A DNA stretch of 60,777 nucleotides, filler included, from Hausera hauseri (Eukaryota), in the NCBI GenBank assembly GCA_046269625.1. It is 11 parts of 11 records of this genome, joined end to end, with 100 filler letters (N's around TTAATTAATTAA, not from the genome) between each part and the next. Parts side by side here need not be neighbours in the genome. Positions count along the whole stretch, not along the records: positions 4,427 to 9,763 come from JBJURY010275951.1; 10 more parts are not named here. One strand, written 5' to 3'. The notes beneath the pieces are model-generated. The model ran no database searches and had not been told where the DNA came from. It saw only the letters and a list, made by a program, of their open reading frames with translations. Positions 4,427 through 49,289 of the stretch are shown here, one piece after another. Numbering within the stretch: the stretch's first letter is position 1; every line of letters starts with the position of its first letter. Made by a program: the position numbers and the translations under genes.

Positions 4427-4595
4427 TAAACCCTTGATGTGGACAGATGAATATGAACCATTGATGTTTGCAGCCACAGATGAATGTTACCTGTGCCACA
4501 AAATATTACCGTTCGATGCACAGGAACGACTCGTACCGGACCATGATCATTTTACCGGTCGATACTTGGGAGCAGCATGCAATTCTTGTAATTAT
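4427..4595 (+). pseudogene. Polinton pPolB fragment (endonuclease VII-like insert)
   Basis: KPLMWTDEYEPLMFAATDECYLCHKILPFDAQERLVPDHDHFTGRYLGAACNSCN; close to 2350-2510(-) and 22630-22780(+). Confidence 0.85.
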
Positions 4596-4864
4596 ATTAA
4601 AAAAAGACATTAAACAAATTTGTTGGTGGCAGTGGATAGCAGGCAGGATTTTCAAAACCATATTCTTTTAAAATCCGTACTGACTAAATAATCCGTTTTG
4701 ATAACTTGGCAACGCACAATAGGACATTTTATGAAATAAAATTTTCTAAAGAAACATCGGTATTTAAACTTTTTTCATTCGAAATCAACCAATCAGAACG
4801 CACTGAGTTATACTGAAGGTAAAATGTATAATGAAGTTGTATTAAGTAGATGTTCGTAGTCAAA

Positions 4865-5245
4865 TCACTTTATTCCAAGAATAATAATTTTTCCCGTATG
4901 GAAAACATTAACACAGTGGATTAAAATATGTTAGATGTAATGCTGGAAATAATTCAGGCTTGTGTGAACATGCAACTTTTTTGTGTCAAGTTATTTAGAT
5001 TGATAATTTCGTTCAGATTCATACATAGGGTAATTGACTGAAGCGTTTCGATTTTGATATTTAGTGGTAAATCTGTTTCCACAATAGGTTTTCGATAGCC
5101 CATAATACGACATTTACCGTTTGAAAACATGATTATTTTGTAATCAGCATAATTAAGAATACACGGCCTTGGTTTCCAATCGTTAAATCGTCGATGTTGG
5201 AGTTTTTTTATCTATGTTTGCCTTATAATTAATATTAACTAACAT
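4865..5245 (-). pseudogene. Miniature intronless TATA-binding-protein-like gene, frameshifted
   Basis: Manual translation: MLVNINYK...KIIMFSNGKCRIMG...LQSITL..INLNNL...KPELFPALHLTYFNPLC/NVFHTGKIIILGIK. Both TBP repeats are recognisable (LIFxSGK and PELFPxL..IFxSGKIVLTG). Missed by the ORF track because of frameshifts. Confidence 0.75.
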
Positions 5246-5270
5246 TTTAATATGTGTACGCACACATCCC

Positions 5271-5330
5271 TATTTATACTTATTTTTACCTAATCAGAAT
5301 GAAGCATGTAGATAAAATTTAGTATAAATA
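5271..5330. promoter_or_regulatory. Back-to-back TATA boxes of a putative bidirectional promoter
   Basis: TATAAATA on the minus strand at 5271-5278 (~26 nt before the TBP-like ATG at 5245) and on the plus strand at 5323-5330 (before an ATG at 5366). Confidence 0.4.
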
Positions 5331-5365
5331 CAGTTCACGTTTGCAAACAAGTCATTTTCTGCAAA

Positions 5366-5925
5366 ATGGAATACAAACTATGCTGCATTCAATTAGACGT
5401 TGACGACAATGGAAAAGTCGTAATTGTTGACCCAAATGACTCAGAATAATTTAATGAAATAGCTGATGACACTGTTGTTAATGAACAACTTATTGATAAC
5501 AAAGTAGCAGATAAACTTGTTGCAGAATAATTTGAAGACATTGGTCTGGTCGAAAACAGTGATTATTTTGAAGATTATCATGACAAAAGTCGCCACATAA
5601 GCGTATATAATTATTATCAATATACTTTCTCTAACTGCTTTTATAGGATTGTGAAAGTACAGATGATGATAAACAATCTTATGATGAGTATGTACATCAA
5701 ACATCAACATTCTCTCAAAATGTTAAAAGCAAACAGGATGTCAATATTACCCATCTTATTGACCTACTAACTGATATTATTGAAAGCGGTGAACTTAACG
5801 GAACTACAATTGTACCTGAAGCCAAATTACCTACTACTGTACGCAAACATATTCCATTTTTTGCTCAATTTATGGCGATTTATGACATTGTTATAAAACT
5901 TGGTACAAATGAAAGAAAAGACTAA
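5366..5925 (+). pseudogene. Interrupted acidic hypothetical ORF divergent from the TBP-like gene
   Basis: MEYKLCCIQLDVDDNGKVVIVDPND... is D/E-rich with in-frame stops and ends near an AATAAA; no family recognised. Confidence 0.3.
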
Positions 5926-6184
5926 CAATCATCTTTGTGTTTTCATTAATAAACTGTATTTATTAATAAAACTGTAGTTTAATAAATTATTGTGTTCTTA
6001 GTTTTATGGTATAAAAAAATAAAAAGTCAGTGAATAAAAGATTTATTGTACAAACAAGTCACTGAGCACATAACGTGAATGTGTGTATTATTTTTCCACC
6101 CCATGACTCATCCGCGAACCACATCAATCCCAGTCCTTGCCAGAGAGGTTGATCTCATGTCCTCACTTCCTATTACTCAGGTCG

Positions 6185-6560
6185 CTTTAACCTTACAAAT
6201 GTACTGTTTCAATTGCATATAATGAAAATCATTCCATTCCCGCTTTCCTGTAATTCCATACAGTCTTCCTCACCATAATTGTTAAGTTCATACGGATACC
6301 AATTGCTATAGTCAACAGTTGAATTATCCGCCCATATGAATTTCCCTTCTGCTGCCTAATCGGTAAGGTCGATCCACACGTGTTTTGTGACAGTTAACTT
6401 TCGTAACACAACATCCACTTCAGCTTTTCCATGAATTGATACTAAGTGACCACTGAATGTTCTACAGTGGCTTTTACTTTCGTGGAATGTGGATTTCGAA
6501 AAGAACTGCCGATAACAATACCCCTAGAATTGTGTATAGTTAAACCAAACATCCAGTAGT
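6185..6560 (-). pseudogene. Intronless C-type lectin domain pseudogene
   Basis: GYCYRQF..STFHESKSHCRTFSGHLVSIH...HVWIDLTD*AAEGKFIWADNSTVDYSNWYPYELNNYGEEDCMELQEKREWNDFH..KQYICK has the WIGL / EPNN / WND / ICK pattern. Confidence 0.85.
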
Positions 6561-7249
6561 GTACTAACATTGTAAAATTGAAATGATTTCGGATAATGAA
6601 GTACGCTTGTCACTTTCATCGTTTTCTCAATCGGCAGCTAAATTTGATTTACTAACATTAATAGACTTATTAAATACGGATAACGTATTACTGTTAGTTC
6701 CCCGAGCATACAAATACACCCTTTATTATTAGTAATTTTCTTTATTTACTCCTGATTAAATAGGAAGCCCGTGAATTATAACTTCGTCTCTAACCTTGTT
6801 TTCTTTAGAACCCTAATGACCACTAGGCTATTCTCAAAGGTCTAAACTTATTTATGTCCTACCCTCTAACTTTTTTTCACCCTGGTAGCCACTAAACTCT
6901 CCTTAAAGGCTACTTTAACTAGTTATCAAAAACACAGTCAAACCCAAATATGAAAATAAATATTCTATCCCTCGTTTTAAACACTCAAGATAAAAAAGGG
7001 ATTCTAACTAACTTATGACGATTATATGCAAAAACAAAGAAAACAAGAAATACACTCACTCTAATAAAGCACTACAGAGAAACTAAATACAAAATAATAT
7101 ATGTTAGTGTCTATAAACCCAACTTTATATATTGTTGCAATCATGAGAAAATTTACAAAGATTTGCATTTCGTTATTTCTTAGTCACAAACAAAGTATTT
7201 TCACAGTACCGTTTTTGTCATTTAGGTACATTAATTACGGTAATTTGGT

Positions 7250-8799
7250 TACATAGGAAACTTCAACGTTCCAACACGCAGGGGCAAAGAATGCGCTTCA
7301 CCACTGGCGCCGGAATACTCATCGTAATCAACGTTGTCTGGCAGAGGAGCAATGAATGCTGAAGGCGGCGGTTGTGCGTTAAGAGGTAAATCGAGCTAAT
7401 TGATTGAGGTCGGAACAAAGCTTATCAGATGTTGGTGAATTTGATCGACTGTTGGTATCCAGATAGGGTCCATTATGTGAAATCTGGTTAATTGAAGGAA
7501 TAAATCGAAAATGGCATGAAGCATATTCTGATGATTTAACATCCCCAGTGAGCGAATGCGGTTTATTCGGCGAGCATCACGATACGTAACATGTCCCCCA
7601 AGGACCATGCTGTAATTCAACACACCTTAAGATATCAGTTTGAGCCAGAGAAAAACAGGATAAAAACAGGTCGACGTCAAAAGTGACAATCACTCGTCCA
7701 TAAGTGAATCCAGCCACGCGAAGGGACACCAATGCGAGATCTGCAGCAGTTTCCAACGCCTGAAGAGGTATACCATAAATGTGCGACTCCGAATTAGACA
7801 CACGCACGCGAAGGCTAATCATTGTGCAGTAACGTTACAATAACGTGCCGCTTTGCATTTCACCCAGGCATATACCAATGCAAACTTTAATGGCTCCAGA
7901 GAGAGCCGTTGCGACACCAACAAAAATGTAATCAGCGCCCACTGGTTGTCGGTTTAATCGCATAAAAGAACGGCGTTTATGCGCCGTAGGAGGTAGCGGT
8001 AAGAAAGAACAATTCATCAGTCGTGTAGCACCATTATTAGATTGAGACCAATATTCCAACCACGGCAACGAAATACTACATTCGATTTCTAGCATAATGG
8101 TCGTGGGCATGACATCTATTCGCACTTTTGGACCGTCAATAGCCAATACGGATGATGTGAAACGAATGGAGGAATATTCTGGAACTGGAAAATAAGACTC
8201 GACGTCTTGATCTTGCCAATAAAATTCCAGTTGACCCTCAGATATCGATAAAAGACTATCACGAAGATTATATTGTAAGTCCGATTGTTCAAGAAGCTTC
8301 TCTAGCAACAGTCGAAGCTGTATTGTTGCTTTTGGCGAAAACGATGAACTATAATCATTCTCTCTTAAAGGCTATTACTTTTTAACCAGTTGGGCAATGA
8401 AAAGGAGTTTTTATAAACGATGGTCGAGCGTGTACGAGCATTGGCATTGATGGCTTTGTACATATTATTAGAACGCGGTATTTCGTAAAATACATTGGTT
8501 GGTTTTACATCATCGGTTCGTATAAGTAGTCCTGGAAGATCTTGTAACTGTCGACTTTGCACTGTATTATCGATGAAACGTATGGAAAATTGAGTTGGCT
8601 GCAAAATTTCATCATTTGTAGATGTTCGTTTACCATCGTGTGGTATCGTTTCACCCAAACCATGTACCAAATTCACAAGATGAGAGGCCTGTGCATTTTG
8701 GATATTTACAATAGATGGTTTTCGCCTCTGTAACCACGAGAGGTAGGTTGGATCTGACACTGAAGGAAAGGAAGAATAAGAAAAATTCGCTACAGCCAT
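7250..8799 (-). pseudogene. Retroelement accessory ORF with C-terminal DEDDh (REX4/ISG20-like) exonuclease fold lacking catalytic acids
   Basis: ORF pieces 8365-8799, 7835-8308, 7577-7822 and 7396-7623 join via single stops or indels. DYIFVGVATAL...YCTMISLRVRVSNSESHIYGI...GRVIVTFDV...YRDA aligns with the 38158-38910 protein. Confidence 0.55.
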
Positions 8800-8829
8800 G
8801 CAGCTCGCAGCTGTAGCTAAAAGTAATCG

Positions 8830-9763
8830 TCATAAGATTACCTCATAATTTAGATCGTGTTTTTGATCATCAGGCTTGCTATTTTTAGTTTTATAACTAT
8901 TACGTTTAATGCTCTCATATTCGTCTCCATCATTTATCCGCAAATTCCAAAAATTTCGCCGAAGCCACCAAGTAAGAGCAAACACAATAATGATCATCCC
9001 AACGACTACAATAATAACGACAAGCCAAGAAAATAAGATTAAGTGATCAATAGGACTTTCAGCTGCAACGTTAAGAGAAGACTGCATATTTATTCTACCA
9101 TAATGACTAGATAAACTCATTCCTTCTGGGGGTATCTGGTGTGGTAGCAGTTCTTTTTGGCAATGGGCAACGAATTTCATTTTTGGTTTACTTTTACATA
9201 TAGGTGATGTTCGAGACAAGACATATCGCAGCATAGACGAAACAGTGGGGTGTACAAGTTTTTTGCTATAGTCTTTGAAACCAACAATGGCTTAGGTACC
9301 ATGAGTTTTAAGGTGGTATTGAGAAGCGTAAAATTATTAAAGCCAAGTATAATAAAGGTTAATTGGACAATATCGTAGCCAGTGCTTGAAATCTCAAGGC
9401 TATAATTCTTCGTGATCCGAATTTTATTAAAACCTCCATTCTCTACCTGATGTCCTGTAGCACTATAACACAGTACTTTTATTGCTATGTGATACGAGCC
9501 CAACAAGATTGTAACAATACCCATATGTTGCCGTATAAAAATTTACGGAACTCTATACGTTTCCTTTAATTTATCATTCTTTGTTGACGATACTCTCTCC
9601 CAAAGATATTCTTCTGATAGATTTAATGGTTCAGTTCGTGCTCGAATCCATTGGAAATTAATATATCGGCGCAGATTGCCTACGTTACAGCTGAGTTTTA
9701 GCCAGGCTGATTTGCTATAGTTAAACTCGCGTTGATATCTAACTACCCGTTTAGAGGTCTTCC
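8830..9763 (-). pseudogene. C-terminal part of an env-like membrane protein
   Basis: TM helix LILFSWLVVIIVVVGMIIIVFALTWWLRR plus cytoplasmic tail, N-glycosylation sequons, and an LFRLCC motif matching RVCC/QVCC of the env-like ORFs at ~19660 and ~36925. Confidence 0.5.
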
Positions 9764-9863: not shown

Positions 9864-10950
9864 ATGAACGTGTATAGTTGATGATAATATCGGATTGCTG
9901 CAAAAAGAATCCATTGAAGCTGAGACGGAAATTAGTTGGTGACGATTCTCGTTGTAGAGCCTCGAACAAATGTGCGATGGTTGCTGTTTTATGTACATAA
10001 TATGTATATTCGCGTTTATTTCCTAGTGAAAGGGTTAAAAAAATGAAATTTTTTAATATGTCAGGTGTATAGCGCGGTGCACAAAACACGGGTATGCCCA
10101 CAATATCCGAGTTGTAAAGGCTTGTTTTTCTGACCGGGGAGATCATTGATTTGAGCTGCGATGATTTATTATTGGCGTTGCGACAAAGATGGAGAAATTG
10201 ACTATTGTCAAAATATATGGTGACCAATTCATCGGGTGAACTTTTATATGTTAAAGAATTGGTACATTCATTAACATATGTATAAAAGAAATATGGTATA
10301 TTAATTGATTGAGAGTCATTTAATTGGGATTTGGTGTCGGAACCAATGAATAGGCGTAAACGTAAAGTTATTGATAGTGGTAAAAATGTGAACAGGAAGG
10401 ACGATCTTAGGTAGGGATAGTGAAGATGGTATCTGTTCATGATCAATAAGTAGCATTTTAAGTTGATGCGATGAGTCAAATTTATAACAAAATCTGATAT
10501 TGTTGTTTTAGTATGTGTGCGGTGTGTGTGTATATGTTTGTCTTGAAAGAAAAGATAGATAAAGGAAAAGACATGTTTATTTTGTAGAGTAAGAGAAGTG
10601 CAGAAGAAGGTATGTTCAGGTTTGGAGGTATAGTGCGCCACCGGAGGCACGACCGCGCACCAACGATAACTGTTGACCTTTCGAGTAACTGTATTGACGT
10701 TTTTTTCTTCTACGGAATTTCGATACAATTGGTTTATCATATTGTTTTTAAAAACGATTGGAAAATAAGTTAAGAAATGAATGTTCGTTTTCTGTTGATA
10801 ATATACCTTTAAGTCAAATGTTCTCTCCTTCATCCATCGAAAAAAATGTAAAAGTAAGTAATTCCTATATTTCTCCGAATGCGTGTCGATATTTACGCCT
10901 TCATTCAATCGATGGAAATCTTTTATATTACTGAACTTTAAACGTTTCAC
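9864..10950 (-). CDS. Continuation of the mosaic ORF: SCAP-like start followed by two ubiquitin-like domains; runs off the contig end
   Basis: INVKRLKF continues SCAP SIDIRRMEL across a 1-nt shift. FIYLFFQDK..TTISDF..TLRLRLFIG and FIFLTLSLGNKREYTYYVHKTATIAHLFEALQRESSPTNFRLSFNGFFL resemble beta-grasp Ubl domains. Confidence 0.5.
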
Positions 10951-10951
10951 A

Positions 10952-13381
10952 TTAATGGGAAAAAATGGTAACGAGGCGTGTTAATTGTAGAAAAAGGTCA
11001 GCAGGTAAACCGATTGCGAAAAATGGCAGGAATACTTGTATGGCAGGATTAAGTGTAAAAATACCCAAGCTCATAATAAATATTTCAGAAATCAAATTTT
11101 GTGTTATTATCCAACCTTCTTTTTTCAGACCTTGTGCTTTTCTATGTTTCACGCGTAAATCGAATACTAAATGTTTCGATGAAAGTTGAACATGCGTGGG
11201 CAACATTTCTTTTTCGATATATGAAATTTCGTTTTTAAATTCAACAAGATCATGAATGTTAATATTGTATATTGCTTTCAAATCCGAAATAGTAGTGGTT
11301 AAAAACCTTTTGTCACAAGTTTTCTCTGATCGTTCATGCCGCGGATGGGGTAATCCCAAATGACCTTGTTCTGGTCTAAACATACGTAAATGGGGTTTAA
11401 TTTTTTTAAGATTGTCTTTGGGCGTTTCTGTCCCAGATGGGGTTGTGGTTGTCATATGCATTACCATAATTATTGTTTTGTACGTTTTTGAATTTTTATC
11501 TCGAATAAACGGATCTTGTAAAAACAATCGGACATACACCACGTCAATATTATGAAATATTTGCTGCATCGAGTGCCGGTCCTTCGATCCGATGATTTTT
11601 TTAACTCCGGCAAGAACGTGGTTAGTCATCGATTCATGAAACATTTTGACAAGAGGTTTTATAGCAATGCACATGAACAAAATAGTAAACCACGCAATGA
11701 ATACGGTGGTGTCTTGTAGGACGTTTTCGTTTATTTTCGTGTTAGAAGGAATTAATAGTGAAAAACTATATGCAATTTTGCCACGCAGGTAGCTATACCA
11801 TCTGATAAATTGTTCGTTCCACTTAATATACCTTACATTCAAATTAAAATAATTAATAAGAAATGGGATACATAACGTAAAAACGAATCTAACGTAGAGG
11901 TCCGTAGAATCGAAGAAAGCAGAATCATTTGTACTGATTGTTGCGCGATTCAGTGCTTGCATTCTAGGTGCCATTGCCACGTTTTCCTCCGTTTCTGTAT
12001 TTCGCATACGCGAGTAGTGCTTTATCGTTTCTGAGCCACCAGTCACAATGGTTCGTTTAATTGTACGAAATGGATTTCCATCAATGGCAATACTTTTCAA
12101 GCTATACATATAACGGAAAACCATTGGCAATGATGTAAGATCATTGCTACTAAGGTTGATATTGGAAATTTTATTGTGAATTTCGGAAAGCTTATTGTTA
12201 ACCAATGCCAATGTAAAAACAATTGAAATGAGCGATATGTGTTCAGCAGAAAGAACTTTGATTTGATTATGTGTTACCAGTAATTCCATCAAATTAGGAT
12301 GTGATAAAGAAATGGAAAAGATTGTCAGACAATTGAATTGTAAATTAAGATGCTCTACAGGAGCTGCAAATCGTTCAGAAAATTGGCTTATTTTATTATA
12401 AGACAAAACCAATGACTTCAAATCCACAAATGAATCAAGGAAATCGGAAAATTTTATGTTAACCAGACTAGAATTTTCAGCAGTAGACTTCTCGGAAAAT
12501 ATGTTTTCAATTTTCGTTGAAAAATCCAAAATGCAATTAATAAATTCATAATGTTTCTCCGTAAATAAAATCTGATTAAAAACGGTAACTTCTTTCATTA
12601 AACCGTTGATTTCAGAGACAACAAATTTATTTAATTTGTTAATTTGACCAACAGAATCAAATTCAACGTGGGAATCAAGAGGTTTGGGAACCTTTTCGCC
12701 ATTGTCGAGTAAACTATACGGTATTATTATTGAAATATGTTTTTCGGAATCAGTTTTAATGTATTTATAAACACGTTTTGGTTCCAATATAAATACGTAA
12801 CTCGCATAATCTTTTAGTTTCGGTAGATTTTCCACAGTTTTTACTTGTCGGCAAATAATGTTGTCTACTAAGGATGCATGTTTCTGTCTCGCTTTTATAA
12901 GACAAGCAATGACTTTCTCATTTGAGTTTTCTGGCAAGATGAAAAATTTAAACTTGTTCCGGACTTTTGCACTGAGAAGGTCATTTTCAGAATCTTTACC
13001 ACCACCCAATAATTCAGGTTCAAATGGCTTTTTTATAAAATATCTGTCATCATCGTCAGTATTAAATAATTCATTTCCCAACAATTTATGATGCTTGATT
13101 AATTCATTAATTGTTGCATCATTTGTGTCTGATATCCTTTCACCAGTTTTGATACCTCTTTCAGTAAGTGGCGATCGGAGTGTGCCATCAGTTTCCTGTG
13201 ATATTATAATTTTAATTTCACCGGTATTTTCAGAATTAATACGTATATTCCTATGGTGCTCGGCTCTGTTTAATTCCTGTTGATAGTCATATTCTGATTT
13301 GGAAGCGGAAACTGCAATTGTTCTAGTAAATTCTTCTGTTGGATCTCTAACAAAAGTCTGTGTTTCATAGTAGTCCAACAT
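10952..13381 (-). CDS. 809-aa chimeric ORF: unknown N-terminus + LRRC40-like LRRs + SLC9 Na+/H+ exchanger fragment + SCAP sterol-sensing-domain fragment
   Basis: LRR ~12420-12000 (IAIDGNPFRTIKRTIVTGGSETIKHY, cf. LRRC40 LEGNPLRTIRREII..GTQEVLKYL). NHE ~11900-11515 (EQFIRWYSYLRGKIAYSF, FTILFMCIAIKPLV, HVLAGVKKIIG). SCAP ~11170-10955 (DLRVKHRKAQGL..EGW..GIFTLNPAIQVF..ADLFLQ). Confidence 0.75.
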   Translation of the reverse strand: MLDYYETQTFVRDPTEEFTRTIAVSASKSEYDYQQELNRAEHHRNIRINSENTGEIKIIISQETDGTLRSPLTERGIKTGERISDTNDATINELIKHHKLLGNELFNTDDDDRYFIKKPFEPELLGGGKDSENDLLSAKVRNKFKFFILPENSNEKVIACLIKARQKHASLVDNIICRQVKTVENLPKLKDYASYVFILEPKRVYKYIKTDSEKHISIIIPYSLLDNGEKVPKPLDSHVEFDSVGQINKLNKFVVSEINGLMKEVTVFNQILFTEKHYEFINCILDFSTKIENIFSEKSTAENSSLVNIKFSDFLDSFVDLKSLVLSYNKISQFSERFAAPVEHLNLQFNCLTIFSISLSHPNLMELLVTHNQIKVLSAEHISLISIVFTLALVNNKLSEIHNKISNINLSSNDLTSLPMVFRYMYSLKSIAIDGNPFRTIKRTIVTGGSETIKHYSRMRNTETEENVAMAPRMQALNRATISTNDSAFFDSTDLYVRFVFTLCIPFLINYFNLNVRYIKWNEQFIRWYSYLRGKIAYSFSLLIPSNTKINENVLQDTTVFIAWFTILFMCIAIKPLVKMFHESMTNHVLAGVKKIIGSKDRHSMQQIFHNIDVVYVRLFLQDPFIRDKNSKTYKTIIMVMHMTTTTPSGTETPKDNLKKIKPHLRMFRPEQGHLGLPHPRHERSEKTCDKRFLTTTISDLKAIYNINIHDLVEFKNEISYIEKEMLPTHVQLSSKHLVFDLRVKHRKAQGLKKEGWIITQNLISEIFIMSLGIFTLNPAIQVFLPFFAIGLPADLFLQLTRLVTIFSH

Positions 13382-15184
13382 CTCTAATGACAGTGTTTGT
13401 TCTGCATGAGTTTCTTCAATGTAAGTTGATTCTGTGAAATTATCGGTTTTCTCTCACAAAATTGTCATATTCTTCCTTGTGTTTTGCAAAATATCCCAAT
13501 ATTTCCGAAGACTGATCATCAATCATTTGTAGACTTGATTTTGAAAAGTTTTCCGTCGGTGGAATAAAATGCATATTGGCATTGAAATCGGAATCATTAT
13601 TATCTGACACCATTGTTAATTTAGGAATATATCCACATAACATTGTTAATTCAGAATAAAGGAATAATTCCAAATGCAGTAAATAAAGTTTATTTTCCAA
13701 ATCAAAAAATCCAATCAATTAAAATCTATTATGTACATTGATATTTTTCTATACATTTATTTACATATAAATATACAAATATATAGTCTGAGGATTTTGA
13801 TAGATATTTTTCTTTTAACAGAACATCAATTGTGGTACTGATAATAATAATAATTCGTTATTCTCGATATTTTCGTTAACAACCGGTACGTCTTTTCTTC
13901 TTATATCTTTTGCGTGATGACTCAACTAAATTTCCTTCCCCTGGTGGCAATTCATTGTCACTTTCTTTTAGAAGCTTTAGTATTTTAATAACGTTTCTTT
14001 TCCAACTTGTTTGTCACATTAGAATCGATAATTTCCTTGCACTGGATAGAAATATCAAACAATCAGCAGCAGTGTCTTATAGATTTATAACACGATTTTC
14101 TCTTGGCCACACTGTATTATCGATTGAGGAAATACAACAAAAATATCGGCAGGAGTAATACACTGGGAGGATGAGTCATATCAGAATGTATGTCAGATCC
14201 ATTCAGTTGTAGAAGATTTACTTTTGACAGTCTACAAATATATTTCATTGTCTTGAAAACATCATAATGAAATGGCCATAAACTTTGGAGTCAGTTGATA
14301 AATGAGTTTTTATTTCCACTTGTCTTAGTACCTCCATGTTTGCAGTAAAATATGATGACAATACCATTCAATTATGAACAATCAATTCCGATTTATCGTG
14401 GTAGCACCCGAATCCTCCGCAGCACAATTATGTTTTTGTGTGAAGATATTTTCTGACATGTCAGTAATATTTTATTTTATATAGATATTTTCAAACAACT
14501 ATTGTTCATTTCGTTTACATGATTGTTGTGCTTTAATTTTTCTATGTTGTTTACTTTTGAACGTTCAAAATGGTCATATATTTTACTATTTGGATATCAA
14601 CTGTACTATTATTATTATTTATACTGTCATTTATTTTAGATTTATTTGATTTTGTACAAATTTGGTTGAATCCTGTAAATATGTTTTCTTTTTTGCAGTG
14701 TAAAATTTTAATAGAAAATCTAAATAAATGATGTGTGCAGTAATATATCATCGCTGGCGATTTGTGTACATCTGTCATTTTCGCCCAATGGTACCAAAAA
14801 AACTTTCACAGTTAAGATATTAATCCGTGATGTTTGAGTTTCAGAATTATAATTTGTATATTTTGTATTTGCTTCTTCAATTACAAAGTTTCGCCTTCCT
14901 TTTTTTATTATTTCTCATTTTTAAATAACATTTTGAGTAGCGGAAGGTAGAACGGTTTGAACACGGATCTCACGACGGTTAGATATGTGTCCAATCCCCG
15001 TTTTTCTAATAGCACAACAGCCAGAACTCATCGTATGGCCACTGCTTCGGGAAAGTAGCATTTATTCATCAGCTTTCAAATCCTCCCACCTCTTCAGTTT
15101 TTTGTTTAAAAGATAAGAGTATTCTACGCTGGTGAAAGGTGAATATCCTGTATTGTTTGGCAAGTTAAAACTACACACGAAATG

Positions 15185-15284: not shown

Positions 15285-15519
15285 AGTATAGACAGAAATT
15301 AATAACTGACTTACCCCATCTAGATCCCGTAGATGAATACCATGGACAGTTGTATAACGAGCAACCTTTAATGAATCCCTCAGCTCCCCGATACGTAGTG
15401 CATACAGGATTATATCCGATGCATCAAGTGCAACAGATGCAACAAAATGTTGACGAAAATGTGATACCCTATAAACGTGAATCTACATATAAAACTGATG
15501 ATAAAAATGAACAACCATC

Positions 15520-18500
15520 ACCTATAAGGCCAGAAATAGAGATAGAGGTGAATGGATACCCAATGACGGCTTTGCTAGGCACTGGGTCTACAATTACAAT
15601 AATGGGAAGGAGCCAATTGCCGAAGGAGTTAAAAAGGAAATTACGAAGACCGACAACTACCTTAGTAAATGTAGGAGCATTCATCACATAAGAAGAAATC
15701 AAGATGGTCTTAGATGATAAAATTAAGATCGGTGAACAGATTGTAAAACATACTATAAGGATAGCCGATAATCTGACTAACGAGATTTTAATTGGATGTG
15801 ATATCCTAAACCAATTGGAAAATGTTTATATAGATGTGAGAATATGTCAACTGAAGACGTTTGGCGAAGACAAAGGAATGGTCTCAATAACAAGAGATAT
15901 TATAATCCCACCGCAATCCGAGATAGTAGTACCCGGAAAAATAGAAAGTCAAGTATTACCAAAGGTTATTTACTTCGAACCTTTCCCACAAGTCATGGAA
16001 AAGTATGAAATTCTAATCGCCCCCCATGTACATAGGGTAAGGAATGGAAAGATCCATTTGCGGATTTGTAATACGGCAAGAAAAGAAAGGCGATTAGGGA
16101 AGAATATGAGATTGGGAGAAGTAACGACCAGCTAGGAAGTAATAAAACAAGAAATATGTTCTACAATTTCAGACGCAGATAAAATAGAAAAATTAATGAT
16201 AGAGAAGTTAAAGAAGGAACCAAACGAAAATAGAGAAAAAGATAAAATTATCAATATCAATTGGCATAAAAAGCTACAAAAATGCGAAATTTTAACTAAG
16301 AAAGAGAAGCGTATGCTAATTGAGCTATTAGAAAAGAATAACAATCGATTTGCACAAAATGATTATGACTTGGGTAAAATGAATATAATACAACATATCA
16401 TTAAGTTGAAGGATGGACAAGACAAACCAATAAAAAAGACCATATCGGCTAGCATATTATAAAAAACAAACAAGAAAAATAATAAAAGAAATAATGGAAA
16501 ACAAGATAATTCGACCAAGTTGTTCCCCATGGACGGATCCAGTAGTGATGGTTAAGAAGAAAGATGGCACTATGAGATTTTGTACAGACTACAAGGCATT
16601 AAACGAAATAACAGAGACGGATACATATCCTTTACCAAGAATTGACAAGATATTAGATAAATTACATGGATCGACAATATTCTCAACGATAGATTTACAA
16701 AAAGGTTATTAGCAAGTGGAGGTGAAAGAAGTGCATAAACCAAAGACAGCCTTCTCAATTAGAGAAGGGTTATGGGAATTTAATAGGATGCCATTTGGAT
16801 TAAAGAATGGACAGCCAACGTTTCAGAGAGGAACAAAACTTCTGCTGCTAGACGCTCTACATGCCATGGTATATATTTATAATGTAATAATAGAATCATC
16901 AAATTTTCAACAATATCTAAGGGATCTGCAAGATCTCTTTGATAGATGCGAAGTAATGGGCCTAAAGATAAACCCAAAGAAATGTTCATTTGCTCAAGCG
17001 GAAGTAGATTGCCTCGGACATAGGGTAGATAGATATGGCGTAAAATCTCAAGACAGGCTTTTATGAAAAATAAGAGACTTTCCAAAGCCAGGTACAGTCA
17101 AAGAATTACGTTAAGTTTTAGGTTTGGCAAACTATTACCAAAAATTTATAAAGGATTTCAGAAAAATTGCGAAACCTTTGTACGAACTATTACGTGAAGA
17201 CCTAGACAAAGTTATTTGGACAAACGAATGCCAAAAAGCTTTCGAATATTTAAAGGATAGACTGTTAACTGCTCCTATTTTAATCTATCCTGATATGACC
17301 AAACCATTCATTTTCGCAACAGACGCAAGCGATTATGGAGTAGGAGCAGTGTTATCACAAAAGGGTGAAGACGGCAAAGAACATCCAGTAGCGTATGTTT
17401 CACGGAAACGTAATAAACACAAGAGGAAATATGCAGTAATTGAAAAAGAATTGTTGGCAGTAATATTCGCCTTGGAGGTATTAACACCCTATATTAGTGA
17501 AAATAAACCTCGTGTAATCTATACAGACCATAGACCGCTTCAATGGTTAAAACAGCATGATAATCCTAATAGCAGACTATTACGATGGGCTCTGAAGTTA
17601 CAACCCTATACATTGAATTTCCAGTATAAACCAGGAACACGAAACGCAAATGCCGATTACCTATCCAGAATACCCAGTAAGTCAGAAACAGAAAAAGCAA
17701 TAGTCGCAGCCGTATAGAGCATGGATGGATCTGTAGAGAAAATTAAGGCAAACCAAAATGAAGACGTTGAAATAAGTGCCATTAGAAAATACATAAAAGA
17801 CAAATCCATACCAGCTAATAAAGAACTAACTCGCCATTTGGCCCGATTCAGTGAAGCTTATGAAGAGAAAGAAGGATTTTTATACTTCGTTCATCAAAAC
17901 GGACCCACTTTAGTAATTGATAAGAAAAATAGAACAGTTGTGTTAACTCAATACCACGATGGACTACCTGGCGGACACCAATCAGCAAATAAAACTCTTA
18001 GTAAAATGAAACGGAAATACTTTTGGCCGACTATAACGAAAGATGTACAAGACTGGTGCGGTAGTTGTAAATAATGTGCTACCCGAAAGAACACGGGAAC
18101 AAAATACAAAGCACCCATCAAAGTATGGGACAATACCCCAGCACCATTTGGGTTTACCTCAATAGATATAACAGGACCACTACCGTTAACCCGAAATGGA
18201 AACCGATATATCTTAGTCTTTATTGACTATTTCACTAGATGGGTTGTTGCCCTATCTATGGCTGATATGAAGGCAGATACAATTGCTGAGAAATTAGTGG
18301 AAAATATAGTATTCAATTATGGAGCCCCAAAAATCCTCTTAACTGATCAAGCGTCTAATTTAACTGGAACCGTAATGCAGTCCATATAAGACATTCTGAA
18401 GATATTAAAGTTACGATCCACACCAGGACACCCGGAAAATAATGGAATGGTTGAAATATATATTGGAGATTTAAAAGGGAAAGTACAAACGGTGGTAAAC

Positions 18501-18986
18501 ACTAGGAAAGACGATTGGGACGAATATATCAATGCATGTGTTTTCGTAAATCGGACATCGGTTCATGAAGCCACCAAAGAGATACCCTTCTATTTAATGT
18601 ATTTACGGGACGCAAGATCGATCTAGATTTTAATGTGAAAACCATTTCACACTTAATGAAAGTAGGAACGCCTACAGTTAGCATATAAAATGATTGGTGA
18701 AAATCAGAAAGATTATAAACTAAGATATAAAAAGTATTATGATCAAAAGACCAAGCAGCCAAAAATTAAGATAGGCGACCAAGTAATGTTATATTCACCG
18801 GCAATTAAAAAGGGTAAAAGGTCTAAGTTAGATAGACCCTATAAAGGACCGTATGAAGTAGAAAAAAGAAACTTACCGAATATTTGTTTGAGGAAAAATA
18901 ATACTTCTGTGAAAGTCCACATTAATAGATGCAAGCCCGCTGCCAAGGAGAGCGAACTAAGAAAAGGTGACAAAGAGTTGGTATGA
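15520..18986 (+). pseudogene. pol: Gypsy pol: aspartic protease, RT, RNase H, integrase
   Basis: VNGYPMTALLGTGS (DTG mutated), ILIGCDIL; SPW..PVVMVKKKDGTMRFCTDY, RMPFGLKN; TDASDYGVGAVLSQ, EKELLA, TDHRPL; HDGLPGGH..WCGSC, IDITGPLP, GPY module. Confidence 0.92.
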
Positions 18987-20350
18987 AGCATTAGTGATAA
19001 AGTAATCGAAATAAATTCAACAAGTAAACTCCAGATAAAGAATGTCCTATTACTAATCATCATCTTGTTATCTCCCATAGTGATAGGACAGATGACGAAT
19101 TCAGAAATCGAACGAGCAAAAATAAGACATGCCATAGCTATGCAAAAAGATCTGTTAATGAAAGCTCTACGGTATAAAATAACATATTCAAAGAAAGGTC
19201 AGAAAATAATAATTTGAAATATGTTAAACCAAATGCCATCGAGATATACAATGGGAATACAAATGATACCTTGGCATGATAACAAAAGAGATCCTAATGA
19301 GCGGCAATATGATTGCCTATTCCACGCGGAGACCAATAATACAGAATGTATAATACACGACTCAGGTATTCATTATATATATCTTACACTCATAGTAAAA
19401 CAAGGAGACTACTATAGAAGTAGGAAAACAAAATTTTTTAGATCAACAGTAATCCCTACCAGACAACAGATGAAACCTTATTAGACGAAATAATACTTAA
19501 CCAAATGATAGTAAAACCTGTGGGATTCAAAAGCGGAAGAAGTTGCATTGAGATTATAACAATGATACGATTAGAAGATACTCAAAGAATAACAATAAAG
19601 CTAATAGAAACCGTGATTCCAGAAGTCAGAGTTTGCAGGATTAAAGGTAATCAGCAACAAGTTTGTTGTATGGTTACAAGAGGAAAATATACCATGTCTA
19701 TTATCTTCTGTTTCGTAAAAGGAATGGTAAATTCAGGTATCCAGTAGAACGAAAAGGACCAACAATGTTCATAGGATATAAGAATGAATGAGTACGATGA
19801 TATGCCAGAGAAGATCACGACACCATTTGTGCAGTCCTCGGCTGATAAAAAAGAGATGACTATCCTAATTAAACCCTAAGCTTCATATTATCGTCAAAAA
19901 CGCTCCATATGGGATAACGTGACAATCGTAGCAGAGCCTACCGCATTAATTATCTCCATTAAACCAGATCTTGATTTTGTAAAAGTTAAATTCAACTGCA
20001 AAAAATAAGATACGATAGTGTCAAAGGGAGTCATAACCCCTCACGACTTGGTAGTATCATGCGCAGCCTTGGATCCCGACACAAGATACACGGTCATTCT
20101 ACAATTGCTAGATGACAATGACAAAATAACCTTTACAAAAGTAATGTCCGCGATTACAAAAAGTAACAAAGTAGAATCACTATATGGGATAAATACAGTT
20201 AAAAATAAAACAACAAAAAAGCCATCATGAGCGGTATATAAGTATTCTCGCCTAGAAATAATCATAATAGGTTCAATAGTCCCAATAGTAGTTATGATAA
20301 TAGTAGCGATATTGTTTAAGGTAATACGACGACGACTCAAGAAAAAATGA
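18987..20350 (+). pseudogene. env: Env-like type I membrane protein in frame with pol
   Basis: Signal-like NVLLLIIILLSPIVIG, Cys-containing ectodomain, furin site RQKR (19892-19903), FN3-like VVSCAALDPDTRYTVILQL, TM IIIIGSIVPIVVMIIVAILF followed by KVIRRR. Confidence 0.65.
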
Positions 20351-20356
20351 AGCTGG

Positions 20357-29514: not shown

Positions 29515-29794
29515 AACTGGTTAAAGCCGTCCAGGTCAACCCTACCTGACGGCGTCCTGTTTAATATAAAGTAAAGAGAGCCTAATAAACCGTAAGGCCA
29601 AGTAAATATAAGCCCACAGGCAACAGTTGACCCGACACATTACCTATAGGTTAGTGATAGGTAGGACTGTTACCTCTGATTGCATCTAGCCCACAAGTCT
29701 TGACAGTCAACTGAGTGCCTATTTTTGTTCTTTCCACTAATTTGAATAAAGCATTATTAAGCCTCTCCCAACTCAAATTGGTGTAGATTGAACA
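29515..29794 (+). repeat. 3' part of an LTR (solo or 3' LTR) of the tRNA-His-primed Gypsy family
   Basis: Colinear with 39622-39913 (gccgtccaggtcaa, acacattacctatagg.tagtgataggtagga, ends gattgaaca); AATAAA present; no PBS after it. Confidence 0.8.
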
Positions 29795-30152
29795 AAAACG
29801 CTTTTAACGGAATAACCATTTAGGAGATTTTCTAACAAGTTTCCATTTTTTTCTGATATTGAATTCAACGATCCATTGGATGAAATATCACTACTGAGAC
29901 TGGACGCATCCTTATTTATATTGTCTTCTATTCCAGATTTTATAGACAATGCTTCAGCTCCAAGTTTCAAAATGAACATATTTCCAACTATAAAAATAGT
30001 TCTGTAGTTCTGAAATTCCTGAATGTGTTTCACCGATATTTAGAAACTAGTTTAATTAGCCAATGAAATGTAAAGTACAGACTTGTAATACGAAGGTTTA
30101 TATCAAATACTCATAAACAGTCAGTAATGCACTTTTAACTATTTGTCTGTCA

Positions 30153-36491: not shown

Positions 36492-37701
36492 AAAGGCTAC
36501 CCAACCAGTATGTAACAGGAATTTAGGTGATCCACGGGTATGATTATGAACGAAACCCGAAACAACGAAAGTATGATTGGGGCCTTACTCATTGGAGGAA
36601 CACGACGGAATGTATAGTAGATGACTGTGGCAATTACCTCATATACTATACTCTGATCAAAAGATTTAAAAATCGCTATCAATGGCAATATACAAAGTGC
36701 CAAGGTATCTTACAGGTTCCTAGTAGACGAACAATGAATGCAACTCTCTTAGATGAAATAATAGTAACTCAACTCACTGTTAAACCGATAGGATTCAAAG
36801 GTGGACGAAGTTGTGTCGAAATTAGGACCATGATAGAGTTGGAATAGGACAAAGTAATAAGTATAAGACTTAAAAAGAAACAAAGGATACCAACAAATTG
36901 CCAGTTAACTGAGAAGCACCTCCGAGTATGTTGTAATGCCCTACGAGGACGAACTATGGTTTACAGTTTATATTAATAAAAAAGGACTCAAAGAGAGTTA
37001 AAACTCTAACTCACAAAGGGCCTAGAACATATGTTCCACTCAAAAGTGTCACTGAATATGACGACAACCAGCAGCCACGTGTCATGACATCTCTTGCGAA
37101 TCTTGCACTATCTAATAAAATAAAGAAAAATGTTGGAAATATGACCGTTCTTATTCGACCTCATGCCGTATCCTATCGCTACAAACGTTCTGTCTTAGAA
37201 AATGCCACTATATCTTCCACGCTCACCTCCTTAGTTGTAGCTACTCAACCTGATTTAAACTTCTATAAAATAAAGCTTATTTGAAAACTAGGTCAATAGA
37301 TTATAGCAAAAGGCATTATTGCGCCAGACGATACAGTAGTGCCGTGTGCTGAGCTAAGTCCAAATACGAAGTATACGGTCACACTACAGTTATATAGTGA
37401 CGATAATAGGATAATCTCTAGTAAATTACTGATAGTTTCGACGAAAGCCAAAACACAACAAAAAGTAAAAAACAAAAAGGGTACAGGCTCCAATACAAAT
37501 CCACCACCATCAAAAGCAAGTTATACCTCTTCCCGAATAGAAATAATCATAATAAATACTGTATGTCCCACGATCTTCTTAAATGCACTAGCTCTTATAA
37601 TAAAAACAATCGTTTGTATACGAAAACGTCGCAGATCAAACTGGGTTAGAATAGACATGCGACGCACACCGAACATCTTGGATACTGGTAATCCAAGTTG
37701 A
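36492..37701 (+). pseudogene. env: Env-like membrane protein, homologue of 18987-20350
   Basis: NTTECIVDD, VKPIGFKGGRSCVEI, furin site RYKR, FN3-like VVPCAELSPNTKYTVTLQL, TM followed by RKRRR. Confidence 0.7.
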
Positions 37702-37877: not shown

Positions 37878-38910
37878 ATGGATATTCAAGCCGTGCAGCA
37901 CAGCAAGAATTGGTACGAGAACGCCAAAAACCACCTGTCGAATGCAACCTCTTCCAATCAATACCACATCCGAGTCAACGAAAATACTTAGTCTCAACTA
38001 TCCAATGGTTCAGCAAATACCCAAAATATCAAGGGGCATTCAATGGGGAATCGATCATTGGCATTAGTCCACATCACAAAGGCCATCTAATTTCCTCTAC
38101 CAGATTTGATCAGCTTCCCGAATAAATTCCACAGTTAATATTTATGATATCATCGGTATGTTCCAGATAAAAATGAAGGACATCAAAACAAATCATCAAA
38201 GGGAACTAACCAATTTGGACCCAAACCACGGAGTGACACTCCAATTCGATTTAATCAAAAGAAATACTCTCCAGATTCTCACATTAACCAATCGAATCAT
38301 GCTTGGAATCGAGTTGATAAAGGCAGAATCCATTTGGACAACACCCCCACAAGGAAAGTGTTTCAACCTAACGAAACGTGACTATCTAAAGTATACTGAC
38401 AAATCATACCGACGAGTGCCACAAATTTTTAACGAAGATATTGTAGTGGTTGCAGTTAACTTGGCATACAATCAGAATAACCAGCTGACGCCGTTAGAAT
38501 GCTCGGTAATAAACCTTCAAGGAGATACTCTGTTCTATACGATGATAACCCCAAGACAAAGAATCAATAACTTTGACTCCCATATTACAGGACTCACCGA
38601 AAACAACATCAACAATCAAATGGACGCTAATTTATCCTATCAGATTTCAGCCGTTTCAAATGATAAGATGGTCGTTGGAGCCGGCGTACTGGAGATGTTA
38701 CAAAAACATCTCTGTGCGTTACGACGAATTATTGGAGTTCGTGATGTGCTCTATCATGAAGAAATAATTCGGACGTATAAACTGGAAACGAGGACTTACA
38801 AGGAGTTGGCTAAGAAATTCTATGAAATGAAAGGTATGTCACTCCGCAGTATGGCACTGGTGCAATGTTACCATGCTTATATAATACTTTGCGATGGGAC
38901 GATGAGATAA
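37878..38910 (+). pseudogene. Accessory ORF with DEDDh (REX4/ISG20-like) exonuclease fold, catalytic D/E absent
   Basis: DIVVVAVNLAY...ECSVINLQGDTLFYTMITPRQRINNFDSHITGLTENNI...KMVVGAG...VRDV parallels REX4 ALDCEMV..RVSIVN..G..VYD.YVKP...V.DYRT.VSGI...ILVGH...IRDT. Confidence 0.65.
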
Positions 38911-39621
38911 TAAATAAAACTACGGCCTCCAACAAGGTACTAAAAAACCACTAGAAGCATCGTCAAAAAGAAGGATCGAAATAGAAGTAATAATATACGG
39001 CGAAATCTTTAAACCTGACGGACTCGGATACAAAGCTTCTTCCGGTAAAACAATTTTTCTCTCGCTTCCAACCAGTCAATAAAATGAGTCAATTTTCTTC
39101 TCGCCCCCGTCGACTGATCAGATCTAATCCCAGAAAATCTAAATAGAAATTAAAAAACAAACAGACAAACAATTACCTACTCCTGAATTAACGTGAATTG
39201 ACATAGCTAAATGTGCAAATAAAGCAACGAAGCAATTATTACCTTCCTTCGAGTTATTTGACTTGCTTTCGAGTGATTTGAATGTAAATATTGATATTTG
39301 ATTAGTAATTATTGTTATGTACAAACCTATTATTTATGGTAGACAAATCCACAAAAAGGTATAAATACTAGTGTAAAATCATAGCTGTATGAATAATTTT
39401 GAAACTCACTTATTACGTGACGATTCCAAAGACACTGTCATTTGCTTTTTCTGTTTCACGTAAGTAATAATCTATTACTATTGTTACTGCGGTTATTGTA
39501 ATTTTATTTGGTGTCATTGTAATTTTATGTTTGGATTTCTTCATATTAAACACTATTGTTGTCACATTTTGCATCTTTTTACTATTGCAATTTAATAATA
39601 AGTAACTAAGTAATACCCTAA

Positions 39622-39913
39622 GTAAGTTGGTTACACAAGCCGTCCAGGTCAAACCTACCTGACGACATCCAGTATAATAATAAATAAAGAGTGCAAAATA
39701 AACTTTAGGGTCTAGTAAATTGGAAATCAGCCTCTGAAGCCACTCTTACCCAACACATTACCTATAGGATAGTGATAGGTAGGATCTACGCGTCTGTCTT
39801 GCACTGTTTGAAGTATCTGAAATTTGTAAAGAAAGCAACTTTGTTCTTCTCGCTAATTTGATTAATGTCCAATTAATAAGTCTCTCTCAACGCGAATTAG
39901 TGAGGATTGAACA
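39622..39913 (+). repeat. LTR, 3' part (5' boundary uncertain, possibly from ~39310-39480)
   Basis: Homologous to 29515-29794; ends TTGAACA 2 nt before a PBS. Confidence 0.75.
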
Positions 39914-39915
39914 AC

Positions 39916-39933
39916 TGGTGCCGTGACCCGGGA
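39916..39933 (+). promoter_or_regulatory. Primer-binding site, tRNA-His
   Basis: TGGTGCCGTGACCCGGGA vs the tRNA-His 3' complement TGGTGCCGTGACTCGGAT. Confidence 0.8.
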
Positions 39934-40075: not shown

Positions 40076-40546
40076 ATGGCGGCAAATCAGAATGTAAATA
40101 TAGCAGAACAATATGTCCAATCAAAAGCCGATTATAAACTCCCCTATGAAGAAATTTTCAGGAAAAGAGGATATACAGGGTTTTATGATGGAGTATGAAG
40201 TCTATTCAAAAAGTTTCGGATGAGACGATAAGCAAAGGATGGAACGCCTACCTCTTCATCTAAAGGGAACGGCGTTGGCAATTTATTTCCAAATGCCCGA
40301 CGATAAAAAGAAGGACTGGAAAAGTATAAAAGAAAGGATGCCTCAGATGTTTCTAGTTGATCCCTCTCGAAAGGGGCGAATAGAAGAATTCATAAGGAGG
40401 AGGCAATGTAAAGATGAAACAGTCCAAGATTTCGTCTGCGCCTTGGAGAAACTAGCGGCCAGAGCATACCCAGACGCCACGATAAGGAATAATGCCCTGT
40501 TAGCTCAGTTCCAATACGGATTAGAAGAGAAGTTAAGGACAATAAT
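40076..40546 (+). pseudogene. gag: Gypsy gag N-terminal/capsid region, truncated by contig end
   Basis: KFSGKEDIQGF..RLPLHLKGTALAIY..EFIRRRQCKDETVQDFVCALEKLAARAYP..QFQYGL. Confidence 0.85.
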
Positions 40547-41396: not shown

Positions 41397-41708
41397 TTAT
41401 GTTTTCGTTTCCGGCAATTTGACACTAGAATTATCCTTTTTGTAGCCAAGTAACCACGACCAATCTGAACTTTCATTATTTCTACAAGCACCATCATCAT
41501 CATTGAGTAGAATCGTCGTGTCCTCGTCGTCTTTCATGGCAGTAATGTCTGAATGAGCATGATAATGGTATTTGTAGTTTGTTGTTGAGCAGAGTACATT
41601 ATTTTGATTAACTAAAACATTTATGTGGTTTTTAATTTGATTAATAATTGATTTATAGTCCACTGAATCCGAGTACAACAATTTTTCCACTGCTAAACAC
41701 ATTGACAC
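41397..41708 (-). CDS. Hypothetical small Polinton protein
   Basis: 103-aa ORF tightly packed among Polinton genes; no motif recognised. Confidence 0.3.
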   Translation of the reverse strand: MSMCLAVEKLLYSDSVDYKSIINQIKNHINVLVNQNNVLCSTTNYKYHYHAHSDITAMKDDEDTTILLNDDDGACRNNESSDWSWLLGYKKDNSSVKLPETKT

Positions 41709-42146
41709 AAAGTGGGTAAAATCAAGTCATTCTCAGTGCAGGAAACAGTTTGGATTCATACGTACATTCAGTAGTGCCCATTGTTAATTTGTACAGATTG
41801 ATTGATGGACAGTCTAACTAAGTCATTACCGTTATTGATTGGATTTGGTCTATGACAATTCCAATTGGTAGTAGTTTATTGTTACTGTAAACTGTGATTG
41901 GTTTGCGACAACCAATAATACGACACTTTTCCAATTGAAATATGATGCATGTAAAATCCGGTGGACCCTTGAGGACATACTGTTACGGCTTCCATTGATT
42001 AAAGGGTAGTGTGTTAATGTCACACTCGGTAGCAGGTACTCGATAGTTGATATTACCTAACATTATGGAAAGTGTTTATACTACAGCTATTTATATACGT
42101 GTAACAAGTTAATGAACAAATCATATGAGGAAAGGTTGTATTATTA

Positions 42147-48700: not shown

Positions 48701-49280
48701 GTTAATCTCAGGGCTTTTGCTCTGCCTATGTCTTCCTCATTTCGTGCGATTATTGAACGATATTTACATAGTAATTCGTAGAACTTGCAATACGCCTCAG
48801 GAGAGAATTTGGTTTCAACGTGAGGTGGAAATTCAGCGAACTTATATGGCTTTTCCTCTATTATTACTGCCGATACTCTGCAAATGTGACCTAAAGTAGT
48901 GTTAGCATGCAGTCTTACGGAAATTCGTACATTGTTTATCAATCTGATAGGTATTCGTCCCGTCACTACTCTACATAAAATATTACTAAACATGAGGTTT
49001 GGATCGATATTTTCTTGAGGTTCAAAATATACCGACAGATCTTCGTCTTGACGAATCTGTGCAAAAATTATCATTTCGGTCCTGGGAGGAATGTCTTCAT
49101 CTTCTGGAATCCATACTTCGCCCGATTTTCTTTCCTTTATTACTTTTGTCCCTTTTATTGGTTCGAGCTTAATTAATTTCCCATTATGCACATCGATTGC
49201 CATGCCTGGTATCTGTTTCAATATGTCACAACCTAGTACTACATCGTCCGTTAACTGATCCATTATCGCAAATTCGTTGG
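45777..49280 (-). pseudogene. pol: Gypsy pol (C-terminal half of PR, dUTPase-like spacer, RT, RNase H, integrase) running into a signal-peptide-led env-like start
   Basis: VVLGCDIL; RFCIDYR, VMPFG, AILDDIMI; TYASKEGIG, TDHKAV; MDIVGPLP, TDRGRNF, TTAYHP; GPY; HYNLRPR then IIVALSLIAVLTPTSNAQW. Confidence 0.9.
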
Positions 49281-49289
49281 TGTGGAATG

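Follow-up and report, generated by a model that had tools for sequence, protein, structure and literature searches.

Animal LTR elements known to carry genes for enzymes in addition to gag, pol and env are few, and what such enzymes are for is a standing question. A locus in Hausera hauseri raises the questions of what kind of element would carry a membrane-protein gene followed by an exonuclease-like gene devoid of its catalytic acids, and whether that pair, which a first-pass annotation had taken for env plus a pseudo-exonuclease, had already lost catalysis in a common ancestor. The window, that is the whole stretch of DNA analysed (60,777 nucleotides), consists of 11 contigs of H. hauseri joined by N-spacers, and its content is mostly decayed eukaryotic Ty3/gypsy and Maverick-like DNA. 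The locus studied is the right-hand 2.5 kb of the 5.3-kb contig 4427–9763, read on the minus strand, and is a decayed copy of an accessory gene pair that probably stems from a large animal retrotransposon.

Gene order at the locus

On the minus strand, a membrane-protein frame (ORF3, 9763–8830) is followed directly past its stop by ORF4 (8799–7249) and then by a T-rich stretch. The features are:

8830–9763, minus strand: ORF3, a type I membrane-protein frame truncated by the contig end so that its 3' part is left, with one internal stop (9545–9543) and one frame change between 9291 and 9177
8962–9042, minus strand: transmembrane (TM) helix of ORF3 (Kyte-Doolittle 3.28 over 19 aa), then basic residues and a tail of about 44 aa
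8760–8784, minus strand: splice-acceptor-like site at the 5' end of ORF4, 21 of 22 pyrimidines and then CAG
7249–8799, minus strand: ORF4, about 517 codons, broken by stops at 8367–8365, 7837–7835 and 7398–7396, a frame change near 8300 and a break near 7600
8050–8481, minus strand (lower limit approximate): predicted AlkB-like double-stranded beta-helix domain, with the LPNxLK family motif at 8397–8380 and no HxD..H metal triad
7450–7978, minus strand (lower limit approximate): predicted DEDDh fold of ISG20/REX4 type, with no acid in the ExoI and ExoII acid columns
6930–7248, minus strand: T-rich non-coding stretch 3' of ORF4, 3' UTR-like, in which no LTR is callable

A TM-anchored ORF followed by one of roughly 500 codons is therefore present as the first-pass annotation had described, the ORF4 frame carrying at least five breaks. 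The acceptor-like site at 8760 is the best of seven sites with at least 19 pyrimidines on both strands of the whole window, and its place at the ORF4 start is that expected for a spliced subgenomic RNA, for which it may have served as acceptor. Passages of PMC5408684 describe ORF3s as spliced messages.

ORF4 and the 38158 protein belong to one family

The relationship of ORF4 to an ORF on another contig, the 38158 protein, had been proposed on the basis of four quoted motif pairs, and all eight motifs were located: IMLEIE (8098–8081), DYIFVGVATA (7933–7904), YCTMIS..HIYGI (7831–7769) and YRDA (7584–7573) on the minus strand of the present contig, and IMLGIE (38296), DIVVVAVNLA (38437), FYTMIT.. 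(38533) and VRDV (38737) on the plus strand of the partner. In the family alignment three of these pairs are in register, but the YRDA/VRDV pairing was rejected, because the family motif G-[IVL]-R-D, to which VRDV corresponds, aligns with RCVE at 7627–7616, and YRDA is found about 14 codons further on, in a different frame. What was called the 38158 protein comprises no more than the C-terminal 250 residues encoded by a longer frame that is frameshifted; the database relative P0001 (447 aa), 58% identical to the partner, matches 37884–38945, and the partner frame is seen to start before 37884. Two further ORF4 family regions thus lie in the window:

37884–38945, plus strand: partner ORF4 family member (38158 protein and its frameshifted N-part), matched by P0001
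58348–59144, plus strand: third ORF4 remnant, a RING-bearing C-terminal part of P0019 type (E=2e-50, 41–44% identity)

Compared directly, the two copies show no DNA match in a blastn self-comparison of the window, in keeping with the earlier statement that DNA similarity is not evident, and the significance of the protein comparison is modest: BLASTP gave E=7e-5 with 29% identity over 59 aa, phmmer gave 7.8 bits, and hhalign of this copy against the partner together with its closest relative P0001 gave a probability of 12.8% (E=0.0023). Through the family the profile score is strong. A search of 1.84 billion representatives with the 250-aa partner (E<=0.001) returned 19 matches, 18 of them real (P0010, a SpaA-repeat protein, was dropped as spurious), and a profile search returned eight matches among 7118 candidates, three of them new, which gives a family of 21 relatives; P0008 and P0017 were left out of the tree and the acid counts as truncated, leaving 19 full-length members. 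When the ORF4 frame of this copy was scored with X placed at each break, it reached 38.1 bits against a profile of the 21 database proteins alone and 44.5 bits against one of 17 database proteins from which P0001 was left out, scores reached by 0 of 500 shuffles in each case, and its reversed sequence gave -3.1 bits or was unreported with the same profiles. Against the 12 acid-bearing members alone, hhalign gave a probability of 81.6% (E=1.1e-5). Because of the database-only profiles, the shuffle controls and this last alignment, membership of the ~517-codon frame and the 38158 ORF in the same protein family can be regarded as established at the level of sequence comparison. The earlier claim that the C-half aligns with the 38158 protein thus holds as to homology but was too narrow, since the database-only profiles match this contig twice, with both domains in order across the frame change near 8300. 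The best single family match of this copy is P0019, which lacks the catalytic acids (14.9 bits).

Other searches returned no relatives. A word-index search found none of the 250-aa partner (0 of 298 candidates) or of the open N-terminal piece of this copy (0 of 77); PDB searches with single sequences stayed below significance, the best matches (E 0.56 and 0.18) both being DEDDh enzymes; and Pfam gave nothing at E<=1 for the pieces of this copy and chance-level matches at E<=10. In bacterial and archaeal genomes two sets of pattern matches, 61 and 40 in number, contained no confirmed family member, and phages gave no family match.

ORF4 is predicted to combine an AlkB-like domain and a DEDDh exonuclease fold

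The family profile matches ISG20L2 (E=5e-26), ISG20 (1e-12), SDN1 (5e-11), the PolC exonuclease and Pan2 (nine sequences at E<=1), and PF00929 (RNase_T) is found at E<0.003 in 11 of the 21 relatives. Folds were assigned from models of two relatives, P0012, which keeps the acids (mean pLDDT 77.7), and P0001, which has lost them (76.9), each model showing a pair of domains with a disordered tail. Of these domains, the second aligns with ISG20 at Z 19.8 (rmsd 1.9, 159 residues) for P0012 and Z 19.1 (rmsd 2.4, 156 residues) for P0001, whereas RNase D reaches only Z 9.7 against the 19.8 of ISG20. The models for the relatives, and the profile for this copy, thus assign the second domain to the ISG20/REX4-type DEDDh exonuclease fold. 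ORF4 shares this fold and the sequence profile with ISG20, ISG20L2, REX4, SDN1 and Pan2 but differs from them in being fused behind an AlkB-like domain, in being intron-less mobile cargo and, in this copy, in lacking the acids.

The first domain, which was absent from the description in the first-pass annotation, aligns with ALKBH6 at Z 12.3 (rmsd 3.1, 135 residues) for P0012 and Z 13.9 (rmsd 3.1, 149 residues) for P0001; ALKBH7, Ofd2, ALKBH1 and ALKBH5 lie within 2 Z units of ALKBH6, cupins are close behind (Z 10–11), and AlkB-type domains of viral replicases were matched as well. At these middling Z scores the domain is modelled as an AlkB-like double-stranded beta-helix, the core it has in common with AlkB/2OG-Fe(II) dioxygenases including viral ones (ALKBH6, ALKBH7, Ofd2). 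The iron triad motif of these dioxygenases is HxD..H; unlike them, the family has one conserved His (16 of 21 rows), one conserved Glu (18 of 21) and no HxD..H, and this copy is without the His. P0019 carries an added C-terminal RING domain.

Hydrophobic N-terminal stretches occur in three of the seven acid-less relatives (P0001, P0018 and P0019) and in none of the 12 acid-bearing ones; they may represent signal anchors or else be no more than pyrimidine tracts that are translated.

No fusogen match for the membrane ORF

Two further ORF3s are present in the window:

36492–37701, plus strand: partner ORF3, broken, with an FN3-like membrane-proximal domain and a TM helix
19032–20350, plus strand: ORF3 homologue, about 434 codons from signal peptide to TM helix, directly behind the integrase of a Ty3/gypsy pol; the contig ends before any ORF4

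The partner ORF3 is 37–41% identical to the ~434-codon frame on contig 15285–20356. The Atlas call for its last open piece was FN3 plus TM (0.94); 165 of 256 features are shared, where matches within one family typically share 170, and the call is a lead rather than proof. The ORF3 ectodomain of the present contig is beta-rich and possibly fibronectin-III-like. Searches of Pfam and PDB gave no match for this partial ORF3 and no fusogen match for any ORF3 piece, and tblastn of this ORF3 against the other two gave a best E of 1.9. Its ectodomain scored 3.7 bits against a profile of the two other sequences, a value that is the best of 37 X placements and was reached by 2 of 1000 shuffles; with the TM helix included, 20 of 1000 shuffles reached the score. 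The fold matches, which were those of the ORF4 models, included no fusogen. By sequence, homology of this ORF3 to the other two is therefore marginal, although possible. A signal-like stretch was seen only in the 19032 homologue and a TM helix in the ORF3 of this contig, both being features of broad specificity.

These results leave the label env unsupported, the partner ORF3 looking like FN3 plus TM, and an attachment or receptor-mimic protein is more likely than a fusogen. The proposal that the cassette is conserved across distant subfamilies stands as far as gene order is concerned, which is the same on both contigs, but homology of the membrane ORFs is only marginal. The order of a Ty3/gypsy pol followed by a signal-peptide, TM-anchored ORF resembles that of errantiviruses with F-type and gB-type env as described in passages of PMC13524379; ORF3, about 434 codons long, differs from their env in its FN3-like call and in matching no fusion protein. 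A large gypsy element of the window (45777–53620, minus strand) carries a gB-type fragment (Monjiviricetes_fusion, E=5e-15) at 49660–50193, before pol, which suggests that post-pol membrane ORFs need not be the fusogen. The position of this fragment corresponds to the gag-env-pol order described in passages of PMC13524379. The ORF3–ORF4 family is itself a warning against calling each TM ORF behind pol env, and passages of PMC11952523 describe a non-Env TM protein that spreads retrotransposons.

The same element has a further signal-peptide ORF after the integrase, near 46000, its pol being 35–48% identical to that of 15285–20356, and a weak ubiquitin-like domain (E=0.011) at 50253–50819 (minus strand), upstream of the gB fragment. 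A Ubi2/SUMO-like motif is described for Burro elements in passages of PMC6431247.

Loss of the catalytic acids and its timing

In the family alignment all three columns of the ExoI D-x-E and the ExoII acid are non-acidic in this copy and in the partner, so that the observation that both lack the ExoI acids was correct. At ExoIII, one frame of this copy after ~7600 offers an H-x4-D that comes about 17 residues too early and the other an open acidic proline-rich tail, neither being significant over 21 comparisons; the partner is without H-x4-D. Among the 19 full-length relatives, 12 keep D-x-E, D/E and H-x4-D and seven are without most of them; nine of the 12 acid-bearing relatives have E at ExoII, and H-x4-D in all 12 points to the DEDDh type. 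Since this intact set matches cellular ISG20, the family ancestor was most plausibly active, and an ancestral loss of catalysis is not supported at the level of the family.

In a tree of 21 rows the acid label needs three changes, and 0% of 200 bootstrap trees give one, the starred branches forcing only one. The AU test rejects neither a single clan made up of the nine acid-less rows (p-AU 0.30) nor clans that join both window copies (p-AU 0.33 and 0.41). This copy forms the longest branch (3.89), pairs weakly with P0019 (74/90) in a long-branch pairing, and scores alike against active (28.6 bits) and inactive members (25.9 bits). For the two window copies a single shared loss is thus neither shown nor rejected by the sequences.

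Decay of this locus was estimated from three stops in 696 sense codons, corresponding to about 3% substitutions (0.6–8.8%). Under a uniform neutral model the chance that such decay changed each of three given residues is P=3e-4 (upper value 6e-3), and because of this low probability the acid loss in this copy appears to predate its decay, which alone is no explanation.

The claim that conservation of the inactive protein implies selection finds partial support. The seven acid-less relatives are open frames of 447–870 aa, as little as 17–23% identical to each other's lineages, and keep 18–23 of 28–30 non-catalytic family columns, the corresponding counts being 14 of 25 for the partner and 9 of 26 for this copy. 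In the acid-less pair P0002/P0018, columns conserved among active members are identical at 43 of 55 positions against 100 of 167 others (p=0.015), but in the pair formed by the partner and P0001 the difference is not significant (32 of 46 against 64 of 110, p=0.21). Selection after loss of the acids is therefore supported for one inactive pair and is not significant for the 38158 lineage.

Element context

On contig 4427–9763 no pol match, repeat or LTR pair, PBS, gag, polypurine tract before TG or tRNA gene was found, in agreement with the earlier statement that neither pol nor LTR is visible there. The Ty3/gypsy type of the element is inferred from other contigs. On that of the partner, ORF3 and ORF4 are followed by a T-rich stretch, an LTR-like stretch, a PBS-like motif and gag:

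39626–39933, plus strand: LTR-like stretch, 72% identical over ~290 bp to a solo copy at 29518–29795, then a PBS-like motif at 39916 and a gag fragment at 40224–40544

This LTR-PBS-gag junction may reflect a tandem array or the circularly permuted assembly of a repeat. Unrelated DNA follows the LTR-like sequence 29518–29795 (plus strand), which makes it a solo LTR. Contig 15285–20356 provides the pol, in PR-RT-RH-IN order, followed by the ORF3 that it has in common with the partner.

The flanks of the two copies differ: the partner adjoins LTR-PBS-gag, but the far flank of the present contig is Maverick-like. Past ORF4 the contig continues with the T-rich stretch, a broken C-type lectin gene and Maverick-like DNA, of which 4427–4601 matches polB-associated DNA at 84% and 4874–5145 matches an integrase-bearing Maverick-like contig; no Maverick end was found between 4427–5145 and ORF4. 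Maverick-like DNA is present on about five of the 11 contigs of the window. The RING remnant 58348–59144 is truncated on its upstream side by a gypsy element of opposite orientation and lies 440 bp from, and outside, a Maverick-like end at 59584, which we take to be of AGTAG type. Of eight relatives from the profile search, five are on contigs of 14.3–16.2 kb and three on contigs of 2.6–3.1 kb.

Proposed origin and function of the ORF4 family

We consider it likely that what remains at this locus is the accessory region, now decayed, from the 3' side of a large Ty3/gypsy-type LTR element, with a membrane gene and then the two-domain ORF4. As to function, we tentatively propose, with rather less than even confidence and by analogy, that ORF4 is an exonuclease turned RNA-end-binding pseudo-nuclease. 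Intact members would be 3'-5' RNA exonucleases, aided in RNA binding by the metal-free AlkB fold, and would trim silencing RNAs of the host or the RNA of the element at their 3' ends; several branches, that of this copy included, would have lost the acids while the element was still active, and the acid-less protein would persist as a pseudo-nuclease protecting the RNA of the element or sequestering small RNAs, to which protein one branch would have added a RING domain. Expression would be from a spliced subgenomic RNA. Identity and mechanism taken together form the explanation that we favour, by a little more than an even chance. The PDB title of SDN1 names it a nuclease of small RNAs. Among DEDD folds, some are inactive but used for nucleic-acid binding, namely those of Exu and the PML PXL (passages of PMC13659232) and of Maelstrom and EXD1 (passages of PMC5408684); like ORF4 here, they have an exonuclease fold devoid of the acid set, but they are host genes with other partner domains, and Exu reaches only Z 10.7–10.9 against ORF4 family models. 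The arenavirus ExoN acts in immune suppression (passages of PMC7968707).

The first-pass reading, in which one ancient loss of catalysis preceded the inheritance of an env plus pseudo-exonuclease cassette by both window elements, agrees with the missing acids of both copies, their identical gene order, the p-AU values of the nine-row and joint clans and the acid-less best match P0019, but appears unlikely to us in view of the three changes that the best tree needs, the bootstrap trees, the near-equal scores of this copy with active and inactive members, the missing fusogen signature and the marginal homology of the ORF3s. Still less probable is that the acid-less versions are relics under relaxed selection, structural or hitch-hiking cargo devoid of an RNA-related role: most acid-less rows have long branches, the 38158 pair gives p=0.21, and extra ORFs in bdelloids are described as intragenomically neutral in passages of PMC5408684, but seven acid-less frames have stayed open down to 17–23% identity between lineages, the fold of P0001 is confident and P0002/P0018 gives p=0.015. 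We rate this the least probable reading.

Between these two in probability, and hence quite unlikely, is the possibility that the cassette is Maverick/Polinton-like cargo at this locus, belonging to a family common to Mavericks and LTR elements. The matches at 4427–4601 and 4874–5145 and the RING remnant 440 bp from a Maverick-like end are consistent with such an origin, the 14.3–16.2 kb contigs of five of the eight relatives would fit either element type, and sharing of ORFs between unrelated elements has been reported (passages of PMC5408684). Against it, the partner copy is joined to LTR-PBS-gag and has its ORF3 in common with a pol-linked element, the end at 59584 has the RING remnant on its outer side, and Maverick-like DNA is so widespread in the window, on ~5 of 11 contigs, that adjacency through nesting is common.

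The preferred reading, a Ty3/gypsy-type accessory region, adds to known cases, as exonuclease cargo in LTR elements has been described before. The closest published case, as far as the passages of PMC5408684 go, is the DEDDy exonuclease ORF3 of the bdelloid Juno/Vesta LTR elements and Terminons, which is likewise a DnaQ-like 3'-5' exonuclease gene behind pol and occurs there as a DEED variant, as E at ExoII does here in nine of 12. The bdelloid proteins are RNase D-like, reported intact and without a TM helix, whereas the ORF4 family is DEDDh/ISG20-like, has an AlkB-like N-domain, includes branches devoid of the acids and comes after a TM gene distinct from it. The Burro elements of planarians, giant gypsy elements, likewise combine large size with regulatory cargo, RING-type domains included, but this cargo lies within the polyprotein, and no exonuclease is named for Burro in the passages of PMC6431247. 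In the literature, as far as its texts were accessible, no AlkB-fold/DEDDh ORF or FN3 membrane ORF in LTR elements was found, although one may be described in subscription papers, bioRxiv supplements or TE databases; a term search of the accessible supplements of PMC13524379 gave 0 matches.

A bolder reading, doubtful as it stands, would see a widespread, undescribed lineage of ~15-kb animal Ty3/gypsy elements with a virus-like module, in which a fibronectin-III receptor-mimic is combined with an AlkB-fold/ISG20-fold RNA-end protein countering piRNA/siRNA silencing, the latter repeatedly a double pseudo-enzyme and in one branch equipped with a RING ligase. In the ORF4 family one protein exists naturally in active and inactive versions, which would permit a direct test of whether retroelement exonuclease cargo cuts or binds RNA, as well as a test of whether animal transposons encode suppressors of small-RNA silencing.

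Other features of the window

The broken C-type lectin gene (6155–6523, minus strand, E=2e-15) is intron-less and converges on a Maverick-like gene at an AT-rich stretch (~5930–6040). One Maverick-region ORF is common to 4957–5211 and 41668–42003 (both minus strand, 42% identical); it has no Pfam match, and by eye we presume a resemblance to the TATA-binding-protein repeat. At 9865–13453 (minus strand), open frames of 833 and 372 aa form a single run without introns that includes pieces of LRR, sterol-sensing, kinesin-like and ubiquitin-like type and looks like a mosaic of captured host fragments.
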